From: an uncultured Candidatus Saccharibacteria bacterium
GTDB lineage: Bacteria > Patescibacteriota > Minisyncoccia > Phycocordibacterales > UBA918
Assembly (NCBI GenBank): GCA_964402035.1
Contig: CAYOAM010000001.1
Span: 179,558-243,557 of the forward strand
DNA length: 64,000 nucleotides
Direction: 5' to 3'
The notes beneath the pieces were generated by a model. The model was not told where the DNA came from, searched no databases, and saw only the letters and a list, made by a program, of their open reading frames with translations. This document shows, in pieces, positions 23,201 through 34,499 of this stretch; position 1 is the first letter of the stretch, and each line of letters opens with the position of its first letter. Both the position numbers and the translations under genes were made by a program.

Positions 23201-25586
23201 ATGGGAGAGTGGAGTACCTCTTGGTTTTGGGACGGAAGGTACGGTCGAGATCGAACGGTTTAGAATCTTTAATCCGCCCATTCTTGTGCCGGACAAAGAG
23301 GGGCTCGTGGTACGCACTTCAGTAAATCTTGACGGGGAAACAAAAGTACACACGTACAGAGAAGATCCTTTGGGAGCAGTACGTACGGTGATACAAGATA
23401 GTATAGAACGTGTAGGAAAACGCGGGACTCTTGTTGAAGTTTCCACAGTTGGCAACACCACCTCTATCTTCTATCCTGCTTCTGGTGCCACTTCGCCAGT
23501 TGACGGTCTTGCACGTCACTACCAGGCAACAAGTGACTGGAATACTGCACGTGACGCCACCGACGGTACTGCGGCTTCAGCAACGACTGGGGACGATCTT
23601 GCTGCAGCCTCACGCAAAGACTCTTCTGACCTCTATGGCATCTATCGTGGCTTTTTCCTTTTTGACACGGCGCCGATTACATCCGGTAACGAGGTCACAG
23701 CAGCAACACTTTCTCTCTATACCAACGCTGTTTCAAATGCTGACAATGACGGTGACGACTTTATCTCCATTGTTTCTACATCCACTCCCGCTTCAGATGC
23801 AAACATCACCACGGCTGACTACGACCAATGTGGCGCAACTGAAGCACATGATACGAGTGAGCGCAAAGACCTTACCGGTATGAGTGTGAGCGTATACAAA
23901 GACTGGTCGATGAATGCTACAGGTCGTAGCAGTATCAATGTCACCGGTATCTCAAAGTTCTGTGCGCGTGAAGGTCACGATCTTCTCGATACACCATACG
24001 CAGGGGGTCCCAATACCTCAAACTACTTCAACATCCTCTGGGCAGATACTGCAGGCACAACCCAAGATCCAACATTGACTGTGACCCACACCCCACTCCC
24101 ATCTCCAACAGGAGGCAACACCATCCAATACCGCTCATACACCTATGACGCAGTGGGAAACATCACCCAGATTGTAGAAAGTGGAAACACACTCGCCCGC
24201 GCCACCACCACATACACATACGACCCCCTCTATCGCCTCGTGAGTGCTTCGACCACTCAGGCAAGTAGCACCCCATACTCCGAAACATACGCATACAACG
24301 CCATCGGTAACCTCACCTATAAGTCAAACGTAGGTACGTACTCATATGGAGGGAGTAGTGGCTCTTCATACGCTAACCCACACGCTCCCACAAGCATCAA
24401 TGGCGTCACCTACGCATATGACAAGAATGGCAACCTAGCCTCCACCACCGACTCCAAGACCTATACCTGGGACTATGCCAATAGGTTAAGTAGCACTGTC
24501 ATAGGCAGTCTCACCACCACATACCAGTACAACCACGAAGGTCAACGAGTATACAAAACCAATGCCTCAGGTACGATAGCCTCACCCTATACCTTCTACG
24601 AAACCGACTCAGGAACAACCACCAAGCACATCTATACCCCTAGTGGTGATCTTCTTAGTACCATCGACAAGAGGGGTAGCACCACCACACGCTCCTATGC
24701 CCACACAGATCACTTGGGATCAACGGTCGCTATCACAAGCAATACCGGAGCAGTGTCACAAGTACTTGAATACTATCCGTATGGAGGAACACGTATAGAC
24801 CAGAAGTATGGCGCTACGAACCAACGCAATAGATACATAGGACAAGACAGTGACATAGAGAACTCGCTTATCTACCTCAATGCACGGTATTATGATGGAC
24901 AGAGAGGGCAGTTCTTGAGTCAGGATCCGGTGTTTAATGAGGTCGGACTCACGAAAGACGGGAAAGCAGTGATGAGGAATCCTCAAGCGATGAACAGCTA
25001 CTCGTATGCACAGAATAATCCTGTGGTGTATAAAGATCCGAGTGGGAGGATAGCGTTTGTACCACTTGTTCTTGGAATTGTGATGGCTTATGGTTATGTA
25101 CAAACGGCTGTTGACGTGTATCACTTTACCAATGTTTTAAGATACCCAGAAGCGTTCACAACCTCTGAAATGAATGAAGCTGGAGTCAAAGTGATACACG
25201 ACGCAGCAGGAATAGGTGCAGGACGACTTCTGGGGCCGGATGTTGGCTCAGGGATTGACACATTTGGAGCGATATATGACACAGTTAACTACGGAGTGAA
25301 AAAAATTGATGATTTATTCAAAAAAGTAAAAAATCTTTCAGTAGACGGAGGTCAAAATATACACCAAACTACACCAGCAATAGGAAACATTCCAAAACCA
25401 CAAGATAATAAAACATATATTAGTGCACCACCATCTACTACTCAACCAATACCAACGGCACAAAACTCTTCTAACTACAATTCAGCTACGAGTTATCTAA
25501 ACTCAGCACAGCGAGCACTAAATCGAGGTGATTTAAAATCAGCCGAAAGATTTATTGGCAAAGCAAGGAGATCTTTAGGTAATTAA
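17295..25586 (+). CDS. rhs: Giant Rhs/YD-repeat polymorphic toxin (Tc-toxin BC-like): signal peptide, SpvB domain, FG-GAP/integrin-like repeats, LamG/ConA-like lectin domain, YD repeats, RHS core and variable C-terminal toxin domain
   Basis: SpvB-like block (GAFTYDYPLMVPPGRNGREPSLVLSYNSRGG..GYGWSINIPFIERV). Six DxNGDGxxD propeller repeats (DVDINGDGFPDII, ADVNGDALTDVL, ADINGDGLPDLV, VDVNGDGLTDVV, EDVNGDGLVDLS, MDVNADRLPDEV). LamG block (IEAWVRPESQ...LIDELRVWSGVRTQAQIQ). YD repeats (YTYDAVGNITQI and others). Core end HTDHLGSTVAITS..YYPYGGTR...NARYYDGQRGQFLSQDPVF, then a unique 215-aa C-terminal domain. Confidence 0.9.
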   Translation: MNGSRQWCVSIGQSFNSVYRKTVSILLAVFLLLEPLTPLFAAEEVPQTTDAPATTSAPVDTTPVITVPRGTEPPPETNTSQTEDGVEFSVDGKTPEIKPPPKVEQPSEDTKKLEEVEPETESLMGMGGATQGSDRGQVRLSSKINEQDGAFTYDYPLMVPPGRNGREPSLVLSYNSRGGGDDDIFGYGWSINIPFIERVNKVGSEQIFTQSVFYSSLGGELVQIGSTTQYRPKVETGEFLKYVFANDLWKITDKSGTVYTFGSTTSSREDNAASSTQIAKWMLDEVRDTNDNYVKYTYYKADNRAYPATIVYTGSGATDGPFSISFVRSTTTSNSPRYESGFAATTTYRISEINTAVSGSWVRKYALAYGVGDNSVRTLLSGITESARTEGSTASTTMPATTFTYENTMSQTWTASSWALPEPFTQNGIDMGTRDVDINGDGFPDIIRFYRDATGTTIKRVYLNNKVDGWTLQSSWDWTYFTVPFSEYYAVGDSNARNDNGVRFADVNGDALTDVLIGYDGNGSSDTQKIYINYGAGWSYDSSWVLPVYFTRYYSSRVWDNGVRIADINGDGLPDLVSAQWNASSTLSTVFLNTGSGWSTTTSWVMPRAFTGAYDGVHQGKDLGTQLVDVNGDGLTDVVHGLKSTIFGNSKNTYLNTGSGWATSTLWDLPDYLIWADEAVSDIGYRFEDVNGDGLVDLSINNTFGGSIPDDDIYINTGAGWTNSIGNFPPYQFVTSTGDTGARFMDVNADRLPDEVYGNTSSSTGPVSSEETYLNRREVGDLLINVTEPKGGTLAITYQSSHEYRSAGSSTNPSLPFPITTVATTTKDAGFGTTETQAYLYEGGDYWFDATLFRDRKFAGFSTMTKTGPTQKERIYFHQGNETNVTSGEYADDSTKIGFPYRSEVADLANRPYKVSTSEWVTSDLGSSASFVKETQTIDLAYDGDSDYKARAVTYVYDDTNGLLTTKTEWGEVTPTTTNSQVVSTSSASIDLESGSSQLLGITDAAQSTLDILGSMTIEAWVRPESQPSVGGISVIASKWSASADQSYALYYENDAGTKKLVFRMDDTTTNPSKICSLSTTLSDATWYHVAVAYDAANASSTLYVNGSSIGYCTGLYTSILNSTTDFRVGAWQNTATHFFDGLIDELRVWSGVRTQAQIQASKDAELAGNESGLQAYWRLNNSSLDTTTNDNDLTLYGGPVYSTSTPLASVYTTAASRFTFTDAGVDKRTTQYTYASNTAAYVTLLQKETLLDRASSTIRENRFYYDTQALGTVTDGNMTKAERLVSGSSTYIDEEWTYNSYGLVSQSKDPRDKATTYVYDSYNLYPATTTNPVSHVLLKSYDYSSGKVATTTDPNSRVFVTVYDAFDRPIEEQIPDPVSGSPVTKATYSYIDTAGSNRIATTQNLNNSTSTESYDYFDGFGRKIQSRVESEASNTFAVRDFYYNSNGLLDRESLPYFNNGSSRTSSTTDAELYSIYTYDPLGRIATTTTAVGTTATVFDDWTERVVDALGNPKGFAYDAYGRLATTTEYNASTTYATAYLWDMTDKLATITDALGNIRAITYDKLGRRLTLQDLHASADTTFGTSSFAYDASGNLGTTTDPKGQTVVRTYDDVNRILTENYTGLAGTEISYTYDTCTNGKGKLCQAIRASSATTTYAYTPPGLLDIATTTVGTSTYTANYDYDRQGNQTQLTYPDASVASYTYNTGGQLEKVQYKESGGSYSDVVSDFNYGPHGMITYELYGNGVSTTKVYDEDQLYRLKTIITVTATGTVGYGGGGDELRELETSLTLGTDGTLLFAVEEEIGAIPEEEAILEEETATQEEVPDITPPLDTEDVGETLEEESPIGTSTDDGAVAATSSTPETAFSSTTEEVASSTPEDTFLESTSTIDMLLVGTTTATTTDLATSTTPILTGIMALIEGKTYEEIARIKSEEIAKIDMRGLYTKGDLDIEILDVAQIDGGIQVFARAWESGVPLGFGTEGTVEIERFRIFNPPILVPDKEGLVVRTSVNLDGETKVHTYREDPLGAVRTVIQDSIERVGKRGTLVEVSTVGNTTSIFYPASGATSPVDGLARHYQATSDWNTARDATDGTAASATTGDDLAAASRKDSSDLYGIYRGFFLFDTAPITSGNEVTAATLSLYTNAVSNADNDGDDFISIVSTSTPASDANITTADYDQCGATEAHDTSERKDLTGMSVSVYKDWSMNATGRSSINVTGISKFCAREGHDLLDTPYAGGPNTSNYFNILWADTAGTTQDPTLTVTHTPLPSPTGGNTIQYRSYTYDAVGNITQIVESGNTLARATTTYTYDPLYRLVSASTTQASSTPYSETYAYNAIGNLTYKSNVGTYSYGGSSGSSYANPHAPTSINGVTYAYDKNGNLASTTDSKTYTWDYANRLSSTVIGSLTTTYQYNHEGQRVYKTNASGTIASPYTFYETDSGTTTKHIYTPSGDLLSTIDKRGSTTTRSYAHTDHLGSTVAITSNTGAVSQVLEYYPYGGTRIDQKYGATNQRNRYIGQDSDIENSLIYLNARYYDGQRGQFLSQDPVFNEVGLTKDGKAVMRNPQAMNSYSYAQNNPVVYKDPSGRIAFVPLVLGIVMAYGYVQTAVDVYHFTNVLRYPEAFTTSEMNEAGVKVIHDAAGIGAGRLLGPDVGSGIDTFGAIYDTVNYGVKKIDDLFKKVKNLSVDGGQNIHQTTPAIGNIPKPQDNKTYISAPPSTTQPIPTAQNSSNYNSATSYLNSAQRALNRGDLKSAERFIGKARRSLGN

Positions 25587-25857: not shown

Positions 25858-27021
25858 GTGACCATCTCCTCCAAAACATACACCTGGGACTATGCCAACA
25901 GACTCAGTAGCACCGTCATAGGATCCTTAAGTACCTCATACCTCTATAACCACGAAGGTCAACGAGTATACAAAACCAATGCTTCAGGTACGATAGCTTC
26001 ACCGTATACCTTCTATGAGACAGACTCAAGTACCACCACCAAGCACATCTATACCCCCAGTGGTGATCTTCTTAGTACCATCGACAAGAGGGGTAGCACC
26101 ACCACACGCTCCTATGCCCACACAGATCACTTGGGATCAACGGTCGCTATCACAAGCAATACCGGAGCAGTGTCACAAGTACTTGAATACTATCCGTATG
26201 GAGGAACACGTATAGACCAGAAGTATGGCGCTACGAACCAACGCAATAGATACATAGGACAAGACAGTGACATAGAGAACTCGCTTATCTACCTCAATGC
26301 ACGGTATTATGATGGACAGAGAGGGCAGTTCCTTTCACAGGATCCGGTGTTTCTTGGGGATGCAGAAGCTCAGGACTTGAAATATCCTCAGAATCTAAAT
26401 AGTTATTCATACTGGACGAACAATCCTATTATTAATAAAGATCCAAGCGGAAAAGCGACATACGTTGATGTTAACGGGAAAAGAATTATAGGTTCAGACA
26501 CAAATGACCCGAATACCTACTATGAGCAAGATGACATCAATATGCTCAACACAAATGCCAACCAAATGGAAAACAACAAGCTCAATGCTGTGGAGTTCTA
26601 TAATAAAGTTAACTATGGTGGTGAATGGGACTACAAAGAAGGAGGGAGGGAGTATTATTTCTTTGAAGGGGAACTGGTCGATAAGGAAACCTATGGGAAT
26701 CGTCATTATGGCTATACGGGCAGCGCAGGAGCTTTCCCGGGCGTTGTATTGAAGGCGGGTGCAGGGGCCGCTTCAGTACGACATAATAAGGGGTTTGTTA
26801 AAAATTCTTCAATGTATCTTGATGAGCAAAAAGATACCAGAAACATTCAGATGGGTATTGATGCATATCAAAGTAAAAATAGCAAAAACACAGTCAGCCT
26901 TTCTACAAAACTAAAGAATGCTAATACATCGCTCAATTATGCCCTTGAACAAGCCAAAAAAGGGAACACATATGCTGCCACTCGAGCTATAAAGAGAGCT
27001 TTCAATCAATTGAACAATTGA
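25858..27021 (+). CDS. Orphan rhs-CT cassette 2: duplicated Rhs core 3' end (about 160 aa) fused to a distinct C-terminal toxin domain; GTG start only
   Basis: Nt 26041-26333 are more than 99% identical to 24623-24915 of the main rhs gene, with divergence starting exactly after QDPVF. No ATG start is present. Confidence 0.7.
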   Translation: MTISSKTYTWDYANRLSSTVIGSLSTSYLYNHEGQRVYKTNASGTIASPYTFYETDSSTTTKHIYTPSGDLLSTIDKRGSTTTRSYAHTDHLGSTVAITSNTGAVSQVLEYYPYGGTRIDQKYGATNQRNRYIGQDSDIENSLIYLNARYYDGQRGQFLSQDPVFLGDAEAQDLKYPQNLNSYSYWTNNPIINKDPSGKATYVDVNGKRIIGSDTNDPNTYYEQDDINMLNTNANQMENNKLNAVEFYNKVNYGGEWDYKEGGREYYFFEGELVDKETYGNRHYGYTGSAGAFPGVVLKAGAGAASVRHNKGFVKNSSMYLDEQKDTRNIQMGIDAYQSKNSKNTVSLSTKLKNANTSLNYALEQAKKGNTYAATRAIKRAFNQLNN

Positions 27022-27028
27022 ATTTAAG

Positions 27029-27700
27029 ATGAAAATTATACATAAAATTGCAAGCCGTATCCGACATCATTACGTTTTGTCAGCATTGTTGGTTAATTTG
27101 ATTCTCAGTATTCTACTGACTTGTATTTTACTTTTCGGTATACGTCTAACTCATGTGCTTTACCAAGCAGCCCTGTTAAATTTTGTTTTCTTGGAGTGCT
27201 TTATAAATTTTGTATTTATCACTTGGTATTTGTTTGGACGTGTATCAAAAATACTAAAATCAGGGCTTCTTTCGCTCATTATCCAATCCCTTAAATATGC
27301 TCTCTTATTTTTTATTGGGATTTGGAGTTTCTTTTTTATTTTTCTTTCACTCGTAGATTTTCATCGCCTCCTTAAGGATGGATATGACGGAAGTTACCTG
27401 CCCGTCCAAACTGTTACTATTGATGAAAATCAGAATATAGTCGTCTATCGAACAAACGGAGGTGCCACAACAGATTTTGGCGTTGAGATTCGAAGAGAGA
27501 AATACTTATCCCTTGGATTCAAATGGGTTAAAACACTTAGAGAGTATTATCATGTGAGCGATATTAAACTAAGTACTTTAAATACTTCTCAGGTCATGAT
27601 AGAAGAGGTAAAAGGTACCAGCCATGTGTATACCTCAAGCGAGGAAAAATGGTACGGCCCTCTCCCCGTGAGAGGTGAGGTAATTGATATTTTTCGTTGA
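27029..27700 (+). CDS. Candidate immunity protein for orphan CT2 (223 aa, multi-TM N-terminal half)
   Basis: Starts 8 nt after the CT2 stop. 5-6 TM helices in the first 110 aa, then a soluble domain. Confidence 0.45.
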   Translation: MKIIHKIASRIRHHYVLSALLVNLILSILLTCILLFGIRLTHVLYQAALLNFVFLECFINFVFITWYLFGRVSKILKSGLLSLIIQSLKYALLFFIGIWSFFFIFLSLVDFHRLLKDGYDGSYLPVQTVTIDENQNIVVYRTNGGATTDFGVEIRREKYLSLGFKWVKTLREYYHVSDIKLSTLNTSQVMIEEVKGTSHVYTSSEEKWYGPLPVRGEVIDIFR

Positions 27701-27737
27701 AACTAGACTAGAAACGGTAGAATGTAGAGAAATGGTG

Positions 27738-27756
27738 GAAATGGGGACAGGTACTT
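27738..27756. repeat. Degenerate REP-like copy (ggaaatggggacaggtac)
   Basis: Shares the ggaaatggggacagg core with the REP arrays flanking the RAYT gene. Confidence 0.4.
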
Positions 27757-28073
27757 TTTTAAAGAGACACAAGCGAGTGTTTCTTAGCAATAATATTTTT
27801 TGTAAAATCTGCTCAAATAGCCTAGCAAGCTAACCCATCGACAAGAAAGGCAGCACTACCACGAGATCCTATGCCCACACAGATCACTTAGGAAGTACGG
27901 TCGCTATCACCTCAAACACTGGAGCAGTCTCTCAAATACTTGAATACTACCCATATGGAGGTACCCGTATAGACCAGAAGTATGGAGCTACAAACCAACG
28001 CAATAGGTACGTTGGGCAGGACTATGACCAAGAAACGAATCTCAATTACCTGCAACAGAGATATCAAAATTCA

Positions 28074-28754
28074 GTGAATGGGCAGTTTATTTCTCAAGAC
28101 CCGGTGTTCCTAGACATAGGACTTAATACCAACGAGGGGAAGGTAGTGATGAGGAATCCGCAAGCAATGAACTCGTATAGTTATGCACAAAATAGTCCTT
28201 TGGTATTGAAAGATCCGAGTGGAAGGAGCGCTGCAGCCATAGGAGGCTTAGAAGGCCTAGCTGCGTTATCCGCACTTGTTGCTCCGGAAGTTGTTGTTCC
28301 GGTAGTGGCAGCAGTTGCAATTGTTACGACGGGGATTGTATTATATGAAAACGGAAAGCAGATTTGGATGGGACCAGTCCAAACTATCAATTTACCCCCA
28401 CCACCGATAGATCCTCTTGACCCGGGAGGTCCACCAAATTTCAAAGGACCAAAGTGGAAACAAGCAATTATTTGGACGACTATCGGAATTGGTGGTTTAG
28501 AGGGGGTACTTGAAAACTATCCAAAGGGAGGCAATTCGAATTCTACTAAACAATCAAACACTACAAATTCAACCAACTCAACTGCCAAATCTCCAACTTA
28601 TAATCAACCTTCTCCATACCAAAATAATCATCCCACTAATAATGACGCGGCATACAGTTTAATAAAGCAAGCTGAAAAAGCCATTGCTAATAAGGATTAT
28701 GGTGCTGCAAAAAAATACCTAAAGAACGCATCGAAAGCCTTAAATGGGAAGTAA
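28074..28754 (+). CDS. Orphan rhs-CT cassette 3 (start-less): an in-frame Rhs-core remnant begins at 27837 immediately after a TAA stop; third distinct C-terminal toxin domain
   Basis: Frame is open from 27837 (IDKKGSTTTRSYAHTDHLGSTVAITSNTGAVSQILEYYPYGGTRIDQ...QDPVFLD), about 80% nt identity to the main core. Only a GTG at 28074 is available as a start. The C-terminal domain is Gly/Pro/Asn-rich with a hydrophobic helix. Confidence 0.55.
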   Translation: MNGQFISQDPVFLDIGLNTNEGKVVMRNPQAMNSYSYAQNSPLVLKDPSGRSAAAIGGLEGLAALSALVAPEVVVPVVAAVAIVTTGIVLYENGKQIWMGPVQTINLPPPPIDPLDPGGPPNFKGPKWKQAIIWTTIGIGGLEGVLENYPKGGNSNSTKQSNTTNSTNSTAKSPTYNQPSPYQNNHPTNNDAAYSLIKQAEKAIANKDYGAAKKYLKNASKALNGK

Positions 28755-28803
28755 AATGTTTCTAAAAAAGCTCAGTAATAAATTAAACTTTAGGTAATAA
28801 TAT

Positions 28804-29067
28804 ATGGCTATATTCATGTTTTTCTTTTGGATCTCGCTGACCTTAATTTGTCTGTTTCTATCCAGAAAATATAAAGGGGGGCATTATAGAGAAGCATCAT
28901 ATTTTACAAGTGCAGCCTTACTATTTTATGTGTTTAAATATTTTGTTAATAACACAACTATTTTCTCACCCGAAACACTATCTCTTATTGAAAAAATAAA
29001 TTTTATATTTTGGATTATATGGGCGTCTTTATTTTTATATTTTGTGATAAAAAAGAAAATTTGGTAG
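28804..29067 (+). CDS. Small membrane protein (87 aa), immunity candidate
   Basis: Very AT-rich. 2-3 TM helices. Confidence 0.4.
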   Translation: MAIFMFFFWISLTLICLFLSRKYKGGHYREASYFTSAALLFYVFKYFVNNTTIFSPETLSLIEKINFIFWIIWASLFLYFVIKKKIW

Positions 29068-29111
29068 TTATCCATTTTTAATAAAGGACCATACAGGATA
29101 ATCTAAAAAGT

Positions 29112-29387
29112 ATGTCCGTACCCCTTGTATCTTTGCTTGCCTATCCAGTTCTTATCTTATTTGGAATTTATTACTGGAAAAAATATAACGATCCTTCAAT
29201 TCCTTGGTATTTGTTTCCCGTAATAGGACTTTTAGTATTGACCGTATCTCAATGGTTTTTAGGTACGAATTTTAACTTAAGTGAGGATGATCAAGCAATT
29301 GAATTTTTAATATTTACTGCTCTTAGGGTCTTAATGGGAGGGACACTTTTAATTGTATTCTTAATAAATTTTTTCAAGAAGAAATGA
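29112..29387 (+). CDS. Small membrane protein (91 aa), immunity candidate
   Basis: AT-rich. 3 TM helices. Ends in KKK. Confidence 0.4.
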   Translation: MSVPLVSLLAYPVLILFGIYYWKKYNDPSIPWYLFPVIGLLVLTVSQWFLGTNFNLSEDDQAIEFLIFTALRVLMGGTLLIVFLINFFKKK

Positions 29388-29405
29388 TTTTCGAAATCTT
29401 AAACC

Positions 29406-29768
29406 CTAGTTAATTTTAGTTTTAATTTGAAAAGTAATTTTGTCCATCTCTACATTTGATTGAGAATCGTGACTAGCCCTTAATCTTATTGGTACTGAAC
29501 CAGTGAGGATCACCTTGCCGTGGTCATAGCTGATGCTTTCTACAAAATCTATAAGGAACTTCCTTTTTGCTTTAAGGTCGATACTCCTTTCAAATCTTGC
29601 TCGTGTAGTCTCACAAAATATCCTTAAGTTCGCATCGATTATATCCTCATCGTGCAGGGTGGGTATTTGTTTGAGAAGTTCCTTTAAATCAAGGAAATGG
29701 ATCAGAAATGGGGACAGGGACAATACTTTAAACAAAGGAAATGGGGACAGGGACAATACTTTAAACAA
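29406..29768 (-). CDS. Hypothetical ORF whose N-terminal 30 codons are encoded by the REP repeats; probably a disrupted gene remnant
   Basis: The N-terminus MFKVLSLSPFPLFKVLSLSPF is the translation of the tandem REP units. No internal ATG except near the C-terminus. Confidence 0.2.
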   Translation of the reverse strand: MFKVLSLSPFPLFKVLSLSPFLIHFLDLKELLKQIPTLHDEDIIDANLRIFCETTRARFERSIDLKAKRKFLIDFVESISYDHGKVILTGSVPIRLRASHDSQSNVEMDKITFQIKTKIN

Positions 29769-29770
29769 AA
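29691..29770. repeat. Left REP-like array: 2.3 tandem copies of ggaaatggggacagggacaatactttaaacaaa (33-nt period)
   Basis: Seen directly. Inverted relative to the array at 30480-30554. Confidence 0.8.
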
Positions 29771-29788
29771 GTATTGCATAATATTGTC

Positions 29789-30457
29789 ATGCCTCGCCAA
29801 GCACGTGTTGCGGTGAAAGATGTGGTGTACCATGTCATCAATCGTTCCAATGGTCGAGCGAGGATATTCGAGAAAGACAGTGACTATCAGCATTTTGAGT
29901 CACCGCTCACCGAAGCCCGGGAACTAACAGATATGCGTATCCTTGCATACTGTATTATGCCCAACCATTGGCATCTTATACTCCATCCACGTTCAGACAC
30001 CAACCTTGCTGAATTTATGAGTTGGCTCACCACGACTCATGTCCGCCAGTATCGCACTCGCACGCAAAGTATTGGCTATGGTCACCTCTATCAAGATCGA
30101 TACAAATCATTTCCCGTTGAGACCAATGACTATTGCGCAACACTGATCCGCTACATTGAACAGAACCCATTGCGCGCTCGACTCATTCAAAGAGCCGAAG
30201 ACTGGCAATGGTCAAGTCTCTGGAGACGAGAGCAGGGAAGCGATGCACAGAAGAGGCTGCTTGCGGAGTTACCCACTGACCTTCCTGCAAACTATCTGCA
30301 GTCTGTGAATGAGATACTTAAACCTAAAATAATAGAAAATATTCGTTACTCGGTGAACAAAGGAAAACCATATGGCTCAGAAAGGTGGGTGAGTACCATG
30401 GTGGGTGACTTTGCATTAAGGTATACGCTTCGTGGTCCAGGTCGTCCGAAGAAATAG
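29789..30457 (+). CDS. REP-associated tyrosine transposase (RAYT, IS200/Y1 HUH family)
   Basis: HUH motif HWHLILH and catalytic Tyr region (YIEQNPLRARL..EDWQWSS). Aligns by eye with the E. coli RAYT YafM pattern. Maximal ORF from TTG 29774. Confidence 0.85.
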   Translation: MPRQARVAVKDVVYHVINRSNGRARIFEKDSDYQHFESPLTEARELTDMRILAYCIMPNHWHLILHPRSDTNLAEFMSWLTTTHVRQYRTRTQSIGYGHLYQDRYKSFPVETNDYCATLIRYIEQNPLRARLIQRAEDWQWSSLWRREQGSDAQKRLLAELPTDLPANYLQSVNEILKPKIIENIRYSVNKGKPYGSERWVSTMVGDFALRYTLRGPGRPKK

Positions 30458-31010
30458 AAAATATTACACAATGAAAAGTGGAAAAATATTGTCCCTGTCC
30501 CCAATTTCCTGGAAAAATATTGTCCCTGTCCCCAATTTCCTCCCCAATTTCCTGAATCCAGTAGGTTCACTGATTGATTCCGTTACGGCTGCAAAAGATA
30601 AACTGGTGGAATTCCAAAACAGCAGTGACCCAGAGCGAGATGCCATGCTTGCTGATGGAATTATCACTTTTGCAGAGATGGTCGTGTTGCGAAATCGTGG
30701 GAATGTGGGGGATGACGTTATTAGAGAGACTCTTAGCGGAAGTGGGGACATTCGAAGAGTACACAGATTGTCATCAACTGATGCACTCACAACAGGTGAA
30801 CAATTCCTCGGTCCTGGTTATAAACAACTAGGTAAGCCAAATTCAGGTGTGTTTAGAAGCGCTGATGGACTGAGGCAATTTAAGATTGATGGGGGATCAC
30901 TTATCCATCCACAAGGAGCACACGTCAGTTTTGAAGCGTTTAATGTAAGTCAGTCTACTAACCCGTATGCAGAACCGTATGTAAACAATCACGTCTTTTT
31001 AACAAATTAA
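30432..31010 (+). CDS. Putative orphan toxin C-terminal domain (5' part overlaps the RAYT 3' end and REP array; the real module probably starts near 30556)
   Basis: Location in the cassette array with a small gene immediately 3'. No recognisable Rhs core upstream, consistent with displacement by the REPIN-RAYT insertion. Domain family not recognised. Confidence 0.3.
   Translation: MVQVVRRNRKYYTMKSGKILSLSPISWKNIVPVPNFLPNFLNPVGSLIDSVTAAKDKLVEFQNSSDPERDAMLADGIITFAEMVVLRNRGNVGDDVIRETLSGSGDIRRVHRLSSTDALTTGEQFLGPGYKQLGKPNSGVFRSADGLRQFKIDGGSLIHPQGAHVSFEAFNVSQSTNPYAEPYVNNHVFLTN
30480..30554. repeat. Right REP-like array: 2.4 tandem copies of ggaaaaatattgtccctgtccccaatttcc (reverse complement of the left units)
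   Basis: Seen directly. Together with 29691-29770 it forms inverted REP doublets around the RAYT gene (REPIN-like). Confidence 0.8.
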
Positions 31011-31013
31011 AAT

Positions 31014-31331
31014 ATGCAAGAAATTTACTTTAACAGAATAGGCATCCTGCGAAAAAGTATACATCCAAAAGAAATTGGTTGGTATATTACGATTCAAGAT
31101 GATACTCAAATCAGTGGAGGGTGCAAAGTTTTTACTTCAAATAATATTGATTTTGAGTCTGATGCAAGTGACGCAGCAAAAATTGTCTTTGATCATTGGT
31201 ATGAAACAGAACTTCACGTATCTAAAGGCATTGAAGCATGGGGTCGAGAGATTGAGTGGACTAACAATTATATCACCATTGAGTGGGCAGATGATATGAA
31301 ATCATGGAAGTGGAAGAAAATGGATAAATAG
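31014..31331 (+). CDS. Candidate immunity protein (105 aa, soluble, Trp-rich)
   Basis: Starts 4 nt after the preceding stop. No TM helices. Confidence 0.35.
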   Translation: MQEIYFNRIGILRKSIHPKEIGWYITIQDDTQISGGCKVFTSNNIDFESDASDAAKIVFDHWYETELHVSKGIEAWGREIEWTNNYITIEWADDMKSWKWKKMDK

Positions 31332-31359
31332 TAATGTAAATAAGGTATCAACTACCTTT

Positions 31360-31533
31360 ATGCCCAAAACTTCAGTAGCCCCATACTCCAAAACATACAC
31401 CTGGGACTATGCAAATAGACTCACAGGTACCACCATAGGCTCTCTCAGTACCACCTATCAATACAACCACGAAGGTCAGCGTGTATACAAAACCAATGCC
31501 TCAGGCACCACGACGATATACATATTAGTATAA
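31360..31533 (+). pseudogene. Truncated Rhs core remnant (57 codons, MPKTSVAPYSKTYTWDYANRLTGTTIGSLSTTYQYNHEGQRVYKTNASG...)
   Basis: Homologous to main-gene region 24440-24570 (SKTYTWDYANRLSSTVIGSLTTTYQYNHEGQRVYKTNASG). Ends in a stop after 8 unrelated codons. Confidence 0.5.
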
Positions 31534-31591
31534 ATTCTATATGAAACGGTTTCTGGAATGAATCGGAAAATAGTGACTGTCCTCAATTTCA

Positions 31592-31619
31592 CTTTTTTGC
31601 GAGGTATAGAGTGAAATAA
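31592..31619. repeat. 28-bp direct repeat copy 2 (identical to 16995-17022); right boundary of the Rhs island
   Basis: Seen directly. Perfect match to the tgt 3' end. Confidence 0.8.
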
Positions 31620-31652
31620 AAAATACCGATTTTGCCAGTGTGGCAGAATCGG
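31612..31652 (-). terminator. Rho-independent terminator for the minus-strand gene 31679-32023
   Basis: Hairpin ccgattttgcca / tggcagaatcgg followed on the minus strand by a TATTTTTTATTT tract. Confidence 0.5.
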
Positions 31653-31678
31653 CATTTGAGCGATACACCGTCATGTGG

Positions 31679-32023
31679 TCATGGAATCAGTCTTTCGGCA
31701 CATACCTTTGCGGTCGCGCCGCTATATTTGTCGGCGATCGGAAGTCCAACCTTAAGCCATTTCTCCACCTCGGCTGGGCGTTGCCAGTTTGATACTGTTT
31801 TGAGGCTCTGCAACACAATCTCGACATCGGGTCGTTTCTTGAATTGAACAACGCAGATGGCGCCTAAGGCGTCAGCGACTGCTGCGTTCGCTGCTGTCTG
31901 TGCCGAGTCTCTGGCTGTTCCGCTAGTAACCCAGCCGCCCCACCAGAAGCCGACGATAGTTGCAGCAATTACCCCTGCGACCGCACCCTTTACTGCATAC
32001 CAAAACTTGTCAGGAATCTTCAT
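31679..32023 (-). CDS. Small membrane-anchored hypothetical protein (114 aa)
   Basis: TM helix (VAGVIAATIVGFWWGGWV). Terminator downstream. Confidence 0.5.
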   Translation of the reverse strand: MKIPDKFWYAVKGAVAGVIAATIVGFWWGGWVTSGTARDSAQTAANAAVADALGAICVVQFKKRPDVEIVLQSLKTVSNWQRPAEVEKWLKVGLPIADKYSGATAKVCAERLIP

Positions 32024-32110
32024 GATGTATTCCTTTCATTCGTTCGTAGAGAAGGGGATCTGCTCTGCCGTATCTATAAGAACAGTAGCATACAATCGGA
32101 TTCTCAGATA

Positions 32111-32145
32111 CAAAATAAAAATAGCCGATACTCGAAGGTATCGGC
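32111..32145 (-). terminator. Rho-independent terminator on the minus strand (gccgatac-tcgaag-gtatcggc plus TATTTTTATTTTG)
   Basis: Seen directly. Terminates a minus-strand transcript coming from the GC-rich region 32146-32395. Confidence 0.6.
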
Positions 32146-32395
32146 AGAAAATCGTAAGCTGTTGGAGGGGCGACTAGGACAGTGGACGTCACACAGCCTA
32201 ATCTTTATATTTGAGTATGGGGCATTTCGTAGCGCAGGGAGGTGCGGAGCACCCCCGAGGGAGGAGAGCCTTTCAGCTCCCGGCTCAGGTTTATCCGTCC
32301 TGCGTGAACATGTACCGCCACCAACTCCTGGAGTCTTGGCACCCTCACAGGTGACAAGCCTGCCACCTCACTTTCGCAAGGAACAGCTAAAAACA
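32146..32395 (-). ncRNA. Candidate structured ncRNA (about 250-285 nt), possibly a reduced RNase P RNA (rnpB)
   Basis: GC-rich island with no credible ORF. Putative promoter TTGACT-N16-TATGCT at about 32432-32404 on the minus strand. Terminal helix agcuguu / aacagcu (P1-like). Segments GAAAGU, GGGUGCCAAG...CCAGGAG and CUGAAAGGCUC resemble conserved RNase P RNA blocks. Intrinsic terminator at the 3' end. Confidence 0.3.
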
Positions 32396-32456
32396 AGCAT
32401 ATACCATAGAGTTAGAAAGTCAATAAAATAAAATATTTGCTATACTCTGTGAGCAT

Positions 32457-34499
32457 ATGGATAAATTTGTACTCAAAACTGACCACAGGCCGGCCGGGGA
32501 TCAACCCGCGGCCATTAAAAGCCTGATCGCTGGTGTCCATGAGGGCATGAAGCATCAGACTCTTTTGGGTGTGACGGGGTCTGGAAAGACGTTTACGGCA
32601 GCGAATGTGATAGAAGCAATTGGAAAGCCAACGCTAGTGATTGCGCACAACAAGACCCTCGCTGCACAGCTTGCGCAAGAATACCGTGATTTTTTCCCAG
32701 AAAATGCCGTCCACTATTTCGTCTCATACTACGACTATTATCAGCCGGAAGCGTATATGCCGGTCTCGGATACCTATATTGAGAAAGAAGCACAAATCAA
32801 TGAAGAAATCGAACGCCTTCGTCACGCCTCAACACAAGCGCTGCTCACACGTAAAGACGTAATTATTGTTGCATCGGTTTCGTGCATTTATGGATTGGGG
32901 TCACCTATTGAGTATGAGAAGGTGCATAAAAAAATAGCGCGTGGTTTTGCTACATCGCGCACTGAGATGATCCGCTTTCTCATTGGCATGTATTTTGAAC
33001 GTACAAATGCCGACCTCACGCCGGGACATTTTCGGGCGGTAGGAAATCATATTGAAATCATGCCGACCAATGAGCGATCGATATACAGGCTATCGTTTGA
33101 TAAGGATGGAGTATCGATGATCACCAAAATCGATGCCATCACGAGATCTATCATGGTTGAATCTGTCGATACCTTCTTCCTATTTCCTGCAAAACACTTT
33201 GTGACACCGGAGGGGGAGCGTGCACGAGCTATCAAAGATATACAAGAAGAACTCGATGTGCAGCTTAAGAAATTCGCCGATGCGGGGAAATTGCTTGAGG
33301 CGGAGCGTCTAAAGCGACGTACGACATACGACCTCGCGCTTATCCGTGAAGTAGGCTATTGCAATGGGATTGAAAATTATTCACGCCATTTTGATGGTCG
33401 CAACGCTGGAGAAGCTCCGTACACACTCCTCTCCTATTTTCCCCACAAAGAAGATGGGACTCCAGATTTCCTCACTATCATCGACGAATCACATGTCACG
33501 ATTCCGCAGCTTGCGGGTATGTATGCGGGTGATCGATCACGCAAGGTGACGCTGGTCGATTTCGGTTTTCGTCTACCGAGCGCGATTGATAATCGTCCGC
33601 TCAACTTTGACGAGGTAGAGGAGCGTCTTGGGCAACGTATCTACACATCGGCAACACCAGGTACCTACGAATACACGCATTCAGTGCCGAAGGATGGGCA
33701 GATAGTGGAGCAGATTATTCGTCCTACTGGACTCATTGACCCCTTGATCGAGATACGTCCTATTGTTGAGCATGATACGTATCCAGGTCAGGTGCGTGAC
33801 TTTATAGCGCATGCCGAACGTGTGATCGCTGAAGGTGGTCGAGTACTCGTAACAACACTTACCAAAAAAATGGCCGAAGATCTTTCGGAATTTTTAAAAG
33901 AGCGAAACATAAAAGCAGAATATATTCATAGTGATATTAAGACTATCGACCGCATCATCATACTTACTAACTTTAGAAAAGGTGTGTTTGATTGCTTGGT
34001 GGGAGTCAATCTTTTGCGTGAAGGGCTTGATCTCCCCGAAGTCGAGCTCGTGTCTATTTTTGATGCAGATAAAGAAGGTTTTTTGCGTTCTGAAACATCA
34101 CTTATCCAGACAATCGGTCGCGCTGCTCGCAATGTCAAAGGGAAGGTGGTGCTGTATGCAGATCAGATCACCGAGTCAATGCGGAAATCGATACGTGAGA
34201 CGGATCGTCGTCGAGCACTGCAAGTCACGTACAACGAAAAACATGGCATTACTCCGCGAACGATCATCAAAGCGATCCACGATATTACAGAAGCGATGCA
34301 CACTGAGCATGAAAAGACGCTGGGTACACTGATGGCGATCGACGCAGAACTATATACTGCAAATCCTAAAGCATTTATCAAAGAAAAAAAAGAGCAAATG
34401 CAGGAGGCGGTCAAGATACTTGATTTTGAAACGGCAGCAATACTGCGCGATGAGATTGCGCTACTTGAAGACAAGCCAAAGAAAAAGAAACGCTCATAG
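32457..34499 (+). CDS. uvrB: Excinuclease ABC subunit B
   Basis: Walker A GVTGSGKTF. YFVSYYDYYQPEAY. C-terminal UVR domain (ETAAILRDEIALLE). Confidence 0.95.
   Translation: MDKFVLKTDHRPAGDQPAAIKSLIAGVHEGMKHQTLLGVTGSGKTFTAANVIEAIGKPTLVIAHNKTLAAQLAQEYRDFFPENAVHYFVSYYDYYQPEAYMPVSDTYIEKEAQINEEIERLRHASTQALLTRKDVIIVASVSCIYGLGSPIEYEKVHKKIARGFATSRTEMIRFLIGMYFERTNADLTPGHFRAVGNHIEIMPTNERSIYRLSFDKDGVSMITKIDAITRSIMVESVDTFFLFPAKHFVTPEGERARAIKDIQEELDVQLKKFADAGKLLEAERLKRRTTYDLALIREVGYCNGIENYSRHFDGRNAGEAPYTLLSYFPHKEDGTPDFLTIIDESHVTIPQLAGMYAGDRSRKVTLVDFGFRLPSAIDNRPLNFDEVEERLGQRIYTSATPGTYEYTHSVPKDGQIVEQIIRPTGLIDPLIEIRPIVEHDTYPGQVRDFIAHAERVIAEGGRVLVTTLTKKMAEDLSEFLKERNIKAEYIHSDIKTIDRIIILTNFRKGVFDCLVGVNLLREGLDLPEVELVSIFDADKEGFLRSETSLIQTIGRAARNVKGKVVLYADQITESMRKSIRETDRRRALQVTYNEKHGITPRTIIKAIHDITEAMHTEHEKTLGTLMAIDAELYTANPKAFIKEKKEQMQEAVKILDFETAAILRDEIALLEDKPKKKKRS

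Follow-up and report, generated by a model that had tools for sequence, protein, structure and literature searches.

A stretch of 64,000 nt (64 kb; hereafter the window) was analyzed, and the unit at 29682-30554 is best explained, with a probability of about 0.8, as a TIRtron, i.e., one Y1 transposase-like gene enclosed between its cognate terminal inverted repeats. The unit is a fresh example of a published class rather than a previously unknown kind of element. The preliminary description had interpreted it as a REPIN-RAYT system, which proved only partly right: the Y1/HUH gene with RAYT motifs, the tandem repeat doublets in inverted orientation, and the embedding in a toxin array were confirmed, while the REPIN configuration, the REP hairpins, and the REP population were not. 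The features referred to below are as follows.

27730-27800, plus strand: solo decayed repeat end, with stuttered tips GAAATGGT and GGAAATGGGGACAGG, a 5-nt core deletion, and a degenerate inner box
29682-29704, plus strand: degenerate partial left-tip copies ("stutter," CTTTAAATCAA-GGAAATGG-atca), outermost
29705-29737, plus strand: left terminal repeat, outer tandem unit of 33 nt, with core GGGGACAGGGACAAT at 29710-29724
29738-29788, plus strand: left terminal inverted repeat, inner complete module (prefix GAAAT, core, AT-rich spacer, and inner box)
29789-30457, plus strand: Y1/HUH tyrosine transposase-like gene (TIRYT), 222 aa, ATG start, MPRQARV...
30458-30509, minus strand: right terminal inverted repeat, inner complete module, with core GGGGACAGGGACAAT at 30488-30502, spacer, and inner box ATTGTGTAATATT at 30460-30472
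30510-30554, minus strand: right repeat, outer tandem unit (30510-30540) and partial third tip copy (30541-30554); repeat families D2 and D3
30555-31010, plus strand: 151-aa coding region, function unassigned, annotated as a 179-aa protein from the ATG at 30471
31014-31331, plus strand: 105-aa gene, found with the 151-aa gene directly 3' of a divergent TIRtron in contig L196 (69% identity)

Terminal repeats in the window and in homologous loci

Each end of the element was a module of ∼50 nt, composed of a 5- to 6-nt prefix, the core GGGGACAGGGACAAT, an AT-rich spacer of ∼15 nt, and an inner TGTG-N3-TAAT box near the gene. The core of the inner left module occupied 29743-29757, and its inner box TTGCATAAT occupied 29774-29782, ending 6 nt 5' of the ATG. 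The segment GGGGACAG, a match to the GGGGWSAS motif, was located 46 nt 5' of the ATG and 45 nt 3' of the stop codon. The tips were reiterated in tandem on both sides (2 × 33 nt on the left, 2 × 31 nt plus a partial copy on the right), with 97% identity between the left units 29705-29737 and 29738-29770, 100% identity between the right units 30479-30509 and 30510-30540, and 89% identity between 29682-29700 and 29726-29744 (repeat family D4). The left and right arms were inverted relative to each other, with 92% complementarity over 24 nt. Moreover, the 16-mer GGGGACAGGGACAATA occurred four times in the window (≤3 mismatches) against 0.44 expected occurrences, and none of 100 shuffles reached four. 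Since all homologues start at an ATG (MPRQ...), the last left unit ends 18 nt, and its core 31 nt, before the gene; the upstream gap of 3 nt reported earlier had presupposed a TTG start at 29774 and does not hold, whereas the downstream gap of 22 nt is correct. As had also been described, two flanking open reading frames run across the repeats (29406-29768, minus strand; 30432/30471-31010, plus strand), and the ATG at 30471, from which the downstream frame is annotated, falls within the right inner module. The degenerate copy previously placed near 27739-27756 is likewise real: GGAAATGGGGACAGG leads there into the decayed remains of a spacer and inner box, which reach to about 27800. An Rfam search of 27000-32500 returned no repeat family and only a sub-threshold CRISPR-DR35 match at 27499-27534. 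A sigma-70 promoter scan at the inner box gave no -35/-10 pair, so that reading TGCATAAT as an "extended -10" is tentative.

The hairpin fold anticipated for these repeats was not observed. Single units in the window folded no better than shuffles (z about -1 to +1), with minimum free energies of -1.2 and -1.8 kcal/mol for two units (z of -1.4 and -1.0), and repeat clade A as a whole had a mean folding z of -0.05; a GTAG tag was absent from the repeat unit. Among the single units and whole flanks folded, the sole hairpin was a 9-bp stem formed by CAATACTTT and AAAGTATTG at 29754-29776, just 5' of the ATG, which was specific to the window's element, and the right end yielded no significant fold. 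Repeats of distant clades can form a 6-bp hairpin, in which 83.7% of cells were paired compared with 31 to 62% in slid controls, a pairing attained by 2 of 500 shuffles.

To define the geometry of the ends, 88 nonredundant full-length copies were compared, most of which carried the core 44 to 49 nt before the ATG. Where the proteins were at least 64% identical, the core stood 44 to 46 nt before the ATG and 34 to 47 nt after the stop codon, and it was GGGGACAGGGACAAT itself that flanked such homologues at this set distance in other Patescibacteria genomes, for instance in L004, L006, and L008, all of which represent different contexts. The same ends are thus conserved around homologues despite unrelated genomic contexts. 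At 59 to 63% protein identity the core became GGGGATA(A/C)GTCC, and below 59% it was GGGGTCAGGAGCC, GGGGTCAGCCACC, or GGTGTCAGGTACC, with further covarying cores (e.g., GGGGATAMGTCC and GGGGTCAGSM...) around more distant homologues. The end sequence therefore covaries with the protein clade, which likely defines the recognition sequence. Stuttered tandem tip copies recurred in homologous loci throughout the family; they shared one outer starting point and varied in inward extent, from stutters of 6 to 20 nt and the 31- to 33-nt units of the window to copies of 47 to 72 nt and ∼330 nt elsewhere. In addition to this fixed geometry, solo ends and internally deleted copies exist.

The Y1 protein and its place among known systems

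The 222-aa protein matched the Pfam family Y1_Tnp (PF01797, "IS200-like") with an E value of 1.5e-19. Its catalytic motifs were an HUH motif of the form NHWH (H60/H62), the tyrosine Y122, and a Y...NP motif, YIEQNP...DWQWSS, and the WSS motif was accompanied by a C-terminal helical tail ending in an invariant R-G-x-G-R-P-K-K. Across 33 homologues, H60, H62, Y122, N126, P127, W139, W141, S143, and G218-R219-P220 were invariant. The family is large, with more than 3,000 homologues, Patescibacteria throughout, and a length of 222 to 225 aa in nearly all of the best 120 matches. The NCBIfam model REP_Tyr_transpos (NF047646) scored 70.2 bits, below its cutoff of 80, and the IS200 model (NF033573) scored 22.3 bits, below its cutoff of 55. 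E. coli TnpA-REP (4ER8) was the sole PDB sequence match and also the top Foldseek match (E value of 2e-7) of an AF2 model with a pLDDT of 85.6, ahead of the ISDra2 and IS608 TnpA structures. The similarity to E. coli YafM noted earlier thus stands as the best PDB and fold match, but it is weak (phmmer E value of 0.004 against YafM/RayT and 17% identity in the structural alignment). Based on the NCBIfam scores, the 4ER8 matches, and the Y---NP motif, the protein is a RAYT-branch enzyme and not a classic IS200/IS605 TnpA. The C-terminal tail of 75 aa was helical in the full-length model (pLDDT of about 90) and was modeled with low confidence in isolation (pLDDT of 65). No DNA-binding domain was detected in the tail by Pfam or by profile-versus-PDB searches, and the HTH-like domains Bac_DnaA_C, HTH_23, and HTH_28 gave no Pfam match at E ≤ 1 for the tail alone or for the 33 members.

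The TIRtron/TIRYT class, with terminal inverted repeats (TIRs) containing GGGGWSAS, was described in 2013 by Di Nocera, De Gregorio, and Rocco (PMC3733652); Quentin et al. in 2018 treated TIRYTs as identical with TnpA-Y1 subclass 2.1 (PMC6006769), and this subclass maps to the Group 1 RAYTs of Bertels et al. in 2017 (PMC5581495). The published signature of subclass 2.1 comprises NHVH or NH[YF]H, W[EQ] or FQ, YIELNP or Y[IV]HLNP, an SS after the core, and a median length of 238 aa, and part of the subclass has a distal C-terminal HTH-like domain of the Bac_DnaA_C, HTH_23, or HTH_28 type (PMC6006769). The window's protein presents NHWH, YQ, YIEQNP, and WSS in 222 aa, with small deviations (W for Y/F/V and Q for L). 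It therefore most probably belongs to the TIRtron/TIRYT class (subclass 2.1, roughly Group 1 RAYT), an assignment made from the motifs, the length, and the TIR motif. The agreement covers a RAYT-like Y1/HUH gene between terminal inverted repeats instead of REP hairpins, the GGGGWSAS match in the TIR at a nearly fixed spacing from the gene, further TIRs in dimers, clusters, and small dispersed families, a protein of ∼220 to 240 aa that has a C-terminal tail and the motifs NH-aromatic-H, YIE-NP, and SS, and, in the sequence sampled, few copies. The element differs from published TIRtrons in its host, since Patescibacteria (CPR) have none described in the literature searched, in the NHWH form of the HUH motif, in a tail that has no Pfam HTH- or DnaA_C-like domain and ends in an invariant, AT-hook-like GRP, and in a bipartite end with a conserved inner TGTG-N3-TAAT box. 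The family-wide tip reiterations and the frequent association of this family with Rhs arrays go beyond the published description. Reclassification from REPIN-RAYT to the TIRtron/TIRYT class, which is published though little studied, is in itself ordinary. A large conserved family with ends that covary with the protein and with outer-anchored stutters thus offers a clean system for the function of Group 1 RAYTs/TIRYTs.

We propose that the Y1 protein would recognize the ends through its HUH core and the helical tail with the AT-hook-like GRP motif, and that it would nick and rejoin a single strand of the DNA where the repeat has its outer edge or close by. Repeated initiation at this outer-edge nick, with inward copying and template switching, could generate the tandem reiterations, which, being always anchored at the outer side, would indicate the site of enzyme action; they could equally have arisen by replication slippage alone. 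The element leaves solo ends in its wake, for example at 27730-27800. IS91/ISCR elements are rolling-circle elements with an HUH Y2 (Rep-like) enzyme and no TIRs. By analogy, their mode of copying could account for one-ended copies that keep one terminus, for tandem reiteration from a fixed outer point, and for a possible comobilization of downstream genes (the trio of Y1, 151-aa, and 105-aa genes in two contexts); the protein family here is different, so that rolling-circle copying would serve as a mechanistic analogy only.

Copy number, mobility, and alternative readings

The window contained one copy of the Y1 gene. Away from the gene flanks, the core GGGGACAGGGACAAT was absent from the window, one decayed solo end apart, and from the 20-kb homologous loci. 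Patescibacteria genomes and MAGs in GTDB carried 1 to 5 loci with the core each, and a complete chromosome of 995 kb had one decayed core locus. About 26 of 37 GTDB core loci were solo ends of 30 to 120 nt or internally deleted copies, and most of the solo ends were right ends that retained a short stub of the gene 3' end. Internally deleted, MITE-like copies were found in L040, L077, and L099, and MAG CAYWMQ01 held one full copy together with partial copies (L028, L031, L038, and L066) that had diverged from the full one. The identical proteins P0098, P0104, and P0077 kept a constant context across 10 to 15 contigs from different samples. In the genomes sampled, the element has a low per-genome copy number and a stable position within species. 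Its behavior is that of a unit that seldom moves, is largely inherited vertically, and tends to persist in dispensable DNA, Rhs orphan-toxin arrays among it.

These data bear directly on the REPIN-RAYT reading, which holds that a domesticated single-copy RAYT disseminates dispersed REP/REPIN hairpins. The element shares with E. coli RayT (YafM, TnpA-REP) and its REP/BIME sequences, and with Pseudomonas REPIN-RAYT systems, the HUH fold, with 4ER8 as best PDB match, the Y---NP motif, and a single-copy gene between inverted cognate repeats. The RAYT-branch position of the protein, its flanking inverted repeats, the single gene copy confirmed in the window, the solo repeats in related genomes plus one decayed copy in the window, and the hairpin-forming repeats of distant clades speak for this reading. 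REPs are defined as imperfect palindromes of 20 to 40 nt that form hairpins, bear a GTAG-type tag, and occur in tens to hundreds of copies per genome, overrepresented extragenically, and REP-associated RAYTs are those of subclasses 2.2 and 2.5 (Groups 2 and 3). By this measure, the window's units are not palindromic hairpins, fold no better than shuffles, and bear no GTAG tag; the inverted arms are parted by the entire gene and hence form no REPIN doublet. The repeat count suggested earlier as a check revealed no REP population of tens to hundreds of copies in the sampled sequence, only the four gene-flanking copies and the decayed solo end across the 64 kb, with 1 to 5 loci in each MAG and just one, decayed, in the complete chromosome. 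Moreover, the core is common to several genomes despite protein differences of up to 36%, unlike lineage-specific REPs, and the protein carries a tail of 75 aa and does not reach the cutoff of the NCBIfam RAYT model (70.2 versus 80). The REPIN-RAYT reading is thus largely refuted for the sampled sequence and appears very improbable.

An actively transposing insertion sequence, with a Y1 gene and terminal inverted repeats that moves as one complete unit and is kept by transposition and horizontal transfer and not by the host, would be in line with the same-ended homologues in unrelated contexts, the solo ends, the MITE-like deletions, and the several partial copies in CAYWMQ01, with the two different TIRtrons 1.7 kb apart in L116, and with contig ends within ∼80 nt of the gene in ∼14 of the 88 copies. 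We nevertheless regard it as unlikely, given that no near-identical multicopy sets were seen, that identical proteins keep one context across contigs from different samples, and that the partial copies in CAYWMQ01 have diverged. The Y1 proteins of the window and L008 are 72% identical, near the 77% of their UvrB proteins, and each of the two elements is situated within an Rhs array 5' of uvrB. For subclass 2.1, a mean of about 1.9 copies in a genome is reported, the copies being 49% identical to one another (PMC6006769). A classic IS200/IS605 element, in which TnpA recognizes same-strand subterminal hairpins with or without a tnpB gene, had been named earlier as an outcome that would refute the REPIN-RAYT reading, and it is itself refuted by the motif and end structure, leaving it hardly any probability. 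The Pfam Y1_Tnp match and the structural proximity of ISDra2 and IS608 TnpA, which have the same catalytic fold (Y1 HUH) as the protein and presumably the same chemistry of cleaving and rejoining single strands, are the points in its favor. Against it stand the NCBIfam scores (IS200, 22.3 bits against a cutoff of 55; REP_Tyr_transpos, 70 bits), Y---NP instead of Y---Q and NHWH instead of DH[VI]H (Table 1 in PMC6006769), a length of 222 aa compared with about 150 aa, with a 75-aa C-terminal tail, ends that are inverted repeats and not hairpins on one strand, the lack of a tnpB-like gene among the neighboring open reading frames, and the absence of multiple copies here.

Association with Rhs toxin arrays

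The toxin array in which the Y1 gene of the window sits is an Rhs array. Of 46 related metagenome loci for which 800 nt or more of upstream sequence was available, 11 (about a fifth) had same-strand Rhs sequence within 3 kb, as had L008 and the window; these loci were distributed over all three repeat clades. In three of them (L157, L116, and L175), the outer repeat edge directly abutted a truncated Rhs core, at differing core positions, and in the window 36 nt separated the solo end at 27730-27800 from the 5'-truncated Rhs core of orphan module 2 on its downstream side (starting at 27837). Synteny with uvrB was rejected as a cause of the association, as uvrB was found only in L008 among all loci. 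Poole et al. (2011) make no mention of transposases beside orphan modules.

These proximity counts and repeat-core abutments, together with the solo end near orphan module 2, the rare gene pair described below, and the right-end bias of solo copies, hint that TIRYT elements of Patescibacteria may take part in shuffling toxin cassettes in Rhs loci, a tentative proposal that we consider rather doubtful. The Y1 enzyme would nick the terminal repeat at its outer edge, and one-ended or read-through (ISCR-like) copying, or joining of repeat ends, could link the element and neighboring toxin/immunity-like genes to arbitrary points of resident Rhs cores, producing 5'-truncated "orphan" modules. The link may also reflect mere tolerance, in that dispensable toxin arrays accept insertions and adjacent deletions in genomes of ∼1 Mb. 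The recurrent embedding suggests that HUH nucleases and the turnover of toxin cassettes in CPR bacteria may be connected, which can be tested.

The unit had also been suggested to have replaced the 5' part of an orphan toxin module. This is supported in part: the 151-aa region lacks its native start codon, and its homology to the one relative known sets in precisely where the repeat array has its outer edge. Neither a toxin domain nor an Rhs core was detected in this frame. Pfam searches gave no match for the small neighboring frames (151, 105, 87, and 91 aa and a minus-strand remnant of 97 aa). The pair of 151-aa and 105-aa genes occurred twice in 5.8 billion proteins, each time directly after a TIRtron, and the Y1 proteins beside the two pairs were 57% identical and had different repeat cores.

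Transposase gene and flanking repeats in the window

The element at 29682-30554 is a TIRtron, a RAYT-like Y1/HUH transposase gene (its product being a TIRYT) bracketed by its own terminal inverted repeats; it is real, and its class is already known. Its parts, with one related repeat farther upstream, are as follows:

about 27730-27800, decayed solo repeat end
29682-29704, degenerate partial left unit
29705-29737 and 29738-29770, left tandem units of 33 nt each, upstream of the gene
29789-30457 (+), Y1/HUH transposase gene, 222 aa, product beginning MPRQARV
30479-30509 and 30510-30540, right tandem units of 31 nt each, downstream of the gene
30541-30554, partial third right unit of 14 nt

The gene starts at ATG 29789 in all homologues, rather than at the upstream TTG 29774 offered by the ORF list. 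The left and right repeats are inverted over 24 nt with 92% complementarity. Moreover, with up to three mismatches the 16-mer GGGGACAGGGACAATA has four sites in the 64-kb window, all flanking the gene, against an expectation of 0.44 (0 of 100 shuffles reached four), and the 12-mer core with one mismatch allowed returned the identical four sites. The inverted tandem repeats reported around the gene in the preliminary description were thus confirmed by coordinates, complementarity, and shuffle test, with distances slightly corrected.

The window, part of a 453-kb metagenome contig, encodes a protein that matched Pfam Y1_Tnp (PF01797) at E 1.5e-19 and scored 70.2 bits against the NCBIfam model for REP-associated tyrosine transposases (below its cut-off of 80) and 22.3 bits against the IS200/IS605 model (cut-off 55). 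The sole PDB chain found by sequence was E. coli TnpA-REP 4ER8 (E 0.004), which also led the family profile search (E 7e-5, then ISDra2 TnpA). An AlphaFold model built with 33 homologues as input (pLDDT 85.6, pTM 0.86) likewise had 4ER8 as its best Foldseek match (E 2e-7, TM 0.71 on the target), with ISDra2, IS608, and IS200 TnpA ranking behind. Across the 33 homologues, the NHWH histidines, the YIEQNP tyrosine, W-x-W-S-S, and a C-terminal R-G-x-G-R-P were invariant or nearly so, and the HUH/Y1 catalytic apparatus is intact and strongly constrained. Considering these HMM scores, structure matches, and HUH and Y---NP motifs, the protein is a class 2 ("Y---NP") member of the TnpA-Y1 superfamily; classic IS200 TnpA identity was ruled out by the 22.3-bit score, the Y---NP motif, and 4ER8 as nearest structure, and no tnpB is present near the gene. 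In the full model, the C-terminal tail is helical, packed on the core, and ends in an invariant GRP, an AT-hook-like motif. More than 3,000 homologues were found at E <= 1e-5; the best 120 of these are 60-78% identical and almost all 222-225 aa long, and the named ones among them come from Parcubacteria/Patescibacteria MAGs.

Two minor features lie upstream. A minus-strand open frame at 29406-29699 (97 aa), without a Pfam match and absent from the public annotation, reaches the left repeat array, the source of its apparent N-terminus, and could be what is left of a truncated gene. At 27499-27534 (-), inside a 223-aa ORF, Rfam gave a sub-threshold CRISPR-DR35 match (25.5 bits versus a gathering score of 35; E 0.09) that is probably due to chance.

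The ends co-vary with the protein and persist as solo copies

Homologues on long contigs (loci L004, L006, and L008) had differing gene neighborhoods, and each had inverted copies of GGGACAGGGACAAT on its two flanks, with no other copy in 20 kb. With 80 further loci collected from metagenomes, 88 non-redundant full-length copies were analyzed. For every protein at least 64% identical to that of the window, the core was GGGGACAGGGACAAT, placed 44-46 nt ahead of the ATG on one side and 34-47 nt past the stop on the other. It became GGGGATA(A/C)GTCC at 59-63% identity, and below 59% it was GGGGTCAGGAGCC, GGGGTCAGCCACC, GGGGACAGCCACC, GGGGACAGTCAC, or GGTGTCAGGTACC, the right copy often overlapping the stop codon. 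Each end module comprised a 5-6-nt prefix (identical on both ends of one element), followed by the core, a spacer rich in AT, and, innermost, a TGTG-N3-TAAT box that is TGTGGCATAAT-like at the left end and TGTGTTCTAAT-like at the right. The repeat is therefore the gene unit's own end, cognate to it and co-evolving with it, and is common to different genomes. In the window, the left inner box, TGCATAAT, stops 6 nt short of the ATG; our guess is an extended -10 element with a leaderless transcript, but a consensus scan found no standard promoter there.

The preliminary description had labeled the unit a REPIN-RAYT, which placed the protein in the right superfamily, while the repeats proved not to be of REP type. 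The folding energies of single repeat units were -1.2 and -1.8 kcal/mol (z -1.4 and -1.0), the right flank taken as a whole did no better than shuffles (z +0.5 on each strand), and the left-flank score was due to one 9-bp hairpin (29754-29776) pairing the last left unit with unique sequence right before the ATG. No GTAG tag occurs in the window repeats. A REPIN doublet was rejected because the inverted arms have the whole gene between them, and a lineage-specific REP because the repeat is common to different genomes and co-varies with the gene unit. In distant clades (homologues <59% identical), the end can fold into a 6-bp hairpin (AAATGG...CCATTT) with a GGGGTCAG loop, with 83.7% of cells paired versus 31-62% in slid controls and 2 of 500 shuffles reaching the observed score. 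Written as AAAxGG ... CCyTTT, the hairpin shows some compensatory change at its fourth pair (UA 24, AU 4, CG 4, GC 1), a hint that REP-like hairpins and non-palindromic terminal repeats may grade into one another. This hairpin is absent in the window's clade (mean z -0.05).

An expected REP population was also not found: the 64-kb window holds the four flanking copies and one decayed solo end, and Patescibacteria MAGs hold few loci each. Scanning the core pattern WWGGGGACAGGGACAATW over one genome per GTDB species, a collection outside which the source organism's genome lies, returned 106 stretches. About two thirds of them were lone matches in unrelated phyla, lacking a neighboring Y1 gene, as expected by chance. 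Some 37 came from Patescibacteria MAGs, and only 5 of these loci (L031, L049, L078, L080, and L092) had a full gene flanked by the core; most others were either 30-120-nt solo ends or copies with internal deletions (L040, L077, and L099), whose two ends lie 170-225 nt apart. Judged by eye, the solo ends (GTDB loci L018-L102) were mostly of right-end type, with inner box TGTGTTGTAAT / TGTGGTCTAAT, and left-type ones were rare (L038 and L082); right-type solo ends often keep a short stub of the gene's 3' end. A complete Nomurabacteria chromosome of 994,774 bp carried one decayed locus (L040), and the richest MAG, CAYWMQ01, one full copy plus three or four partial, diverged copies. Moreover, the identical proteins P0098, P0104, and P0077 each occurred on 10-15 contigs from different samples with constant neighbors. 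With so few loci per MAG and such constant neighbors, the repeats form a small family of solo ends rather than a REP population among the Patescibacteria scanned, and within a species the gene has essentially one copy and a stable position.

Some gene-less loci showed other arrangements: two clusters separated by 2.9 kb that together contain six right-end copies, with nested 28-72-nt duplications (L098, 60-148 and 3008-3249), two identical ends in direct orientation 733 nt apart (L048, 780-847 and 1507-1578), and a core joined to unrelated sequence, itself repeated 990 nt apart (L114, 5740-5773 and 6729-6762). In about 14 of the 88 copies (e.g., L124, L144, L145, L152, L153, L155, L156, L159, L163, L173, L177, L192, and others), the contig breaks off inside the repeat array, no more than about 80 nt from the gene, which suggests that assemblies break at TIRtron repeats. 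TIRtron remnants with a Patescibacteria-type core on contig JBLHGD010000008.1 (L077 and L101), binned as "Candidatus Azotimanducaceae" (Gammaproteobacteria), could reflect mis-binning or transfer.

Relation to known TIRtrons and a proposed origin of the stutters

RAYT-like genes with long terminal inverted repeats (TIRs) in place of REPs were named TIRtrons, encoding TIRYTs; many TIRs lie at a constant distance from the gene and have GGGGWSAS in common, and TIRs can also be present as dimers or clusters and as families of moderate abundance (Di Nocera et al. 2013, PMC3733652). The window core GGGGACAG fits GGGGWSAS exactly. Of 26 TIRYTs, 20 were assigned to TnpA-Y1 subclass 2.1 (Bertels' Group 1), whose proteins show the HuH motif NHVH/NH[YF]H, W[EQ]/FQ, YIELNP/Y[IV]HLNP, and SS, have a median length of 238 aa, and carry a C-terminal tail; REPs are absent, and each genome has about 1.9 copies (Quentin et al. 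2018, PMC6006769). The 16-mers flanking Group 1 genes number just about 12 per replicon (Bertels et al. 2017, PMC5581495). By motif, the window protein fits this subclass (NHWH, YQ, YIEQNP, WSS, 222 aa), but the HTH/DnaA_C-like domain reported for the tail in part of the subclass was not detectable by Pfam in any of 33 members of the window family. No mention of RAYT or TIRYT elements in Patescibacteria was found in the literature searched. The class is known yet mechanistically unexplored; in the Patescibacteria family the recognition sequence clearly co-varies, the stutters are anchored at the ends, and the recurrent association with Rhs is open to testing.

Family-wide, each tandem copy begins at the same outer point (prefix plus GGGG...) and runs inward by a variable length, from stutters of 6-20 nt (GAAATGG / GAAATGGGGACA / GAAATGGGGACAGGGACAAT in L005; ATTAATGG / ATTAATGGGGTCAG / ... 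in L190) to units of 31-33 nt in the window, 28-72 nt in L098, and about 330 nt in L038 and L066. The TIRYT enzyme may bind the end module and nick and rejoin one strand near the outer edge of the end, the main clue being that the reiterations are always anchored at the outer point; tandem copies would then arise if initiation recurred at that fixed nick and copying ended at variable points or switched template. Replication slippage is another conceivable source of these reiterations.

Rhs toxin arrays and the downstream gene pair

The window's gene lies in an Rhs array, and its neighborhood contains the following:

17295-25586, SpvB/RHS/YD-shell protein, 2,763 aa
25858-27021, orphan module with Ntox44
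from 27837, orphan module 2, with truncated core
30555-31331, gene pair after the element (151 aa and 105 aa), with the 151-aa coding region at 30555-31010
31360-31533, further Rhs core fragment, MPKTSVAPYSKTYTWDYANRLTG...NHEGQRVYKTNASG, after the 105-aa gene

Between the window's solo end and the truncated core of orphan module 2 there are 36 nt; the fragment at 31360-31533 is truncated on its 3' side and has no repeat end beside it. Among the 46 metagenome loci with at least 800 nt of upstream sequence, 10 had Rhs core C-terminal sequence within 3 kb upstream on the same strand, and an eleventh (L126) had an Rhs N-terminal fragment upstream; L008 is also within an Rhs array. The Rhs-associated TIRtrons (L116, L126, L128, L139, L142, L146, L157, L173, L175, L187, L008, and the window's) represent about a fifth of the loci with enough flank and span all three end-sequence clades. 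In three loci, a truncated Rhs core and the outer edge of the repeats meet without a gap: L157 (...ccgttttcc / ACACATACGGATCAC, encoding HTDH), L116 (...ccccatttac / ttcaaaaccc, encoding ...QNPQAQNSYSY), and L175 (left side, with the core ORF running into the repeat). A single Rhs array in L116 carries two TIRtrons from different clades (2224-2883 and 4555-5220), separated by 1.7 kb, with proteins 78% and 60% identical to the window's and ends GGGGACAGGGACA and GGGGATTAGTCC.

None of the 37 GTDB Patescibacteria loci had Rhs core sequence, and in non-Rhs loci the gene just upstream of the TIRtron, on the same strand, repeatedly encodes a large secreted-type protein of 880-1,062 aa (Laminin_G_3, PA14/PG_binding_1, Flg_new_2, or LCAT-like lipase; L004 7069-9900, L197 2765-5905, L201 1740-4928, and L204 2899-5541). 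The simplest reading is that dispensable toxin arrays in small genomes tolerate insertions and adjacent deletions. Participation of the TIRtron in toxin-cassette turnover would be the more interesting reading if true, and we consider it unlikely.

Downstream, the preliminary description had the unit displacing the 5' end of an orphan toxin module. Replacement of the 5' end of the 151-aa gene is reasonable on sequence comparison, because homology to its one relative among 5.8 billion clustered proteins (P0122, 55% identity) begins exactly at the outer edge of the repeat array, CTG occupies the position of the P0122 start codon, and the sole in-frame start is ATG 30471, inside the right repeat (the public annotation gives a 179-aa protein). 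The toxin-module label is unproven. Neither the 151-aa nor the 105-aa product has a Pfam match. In L196 (3015-4584), P0122 also directly follows a Y1 gene whose product is 57% identical to the window's and whose ends, GGGGATA(A/C)GTCC, belong to a different clade; after P0122 comes a 103-aa protein that has 69% identity to the 105-aa product of the window, and the upstream context of L196 differs from that of the window and is not Rhs. The Y1, 151-aa, and 105-aa genes may travel or persist as a block.
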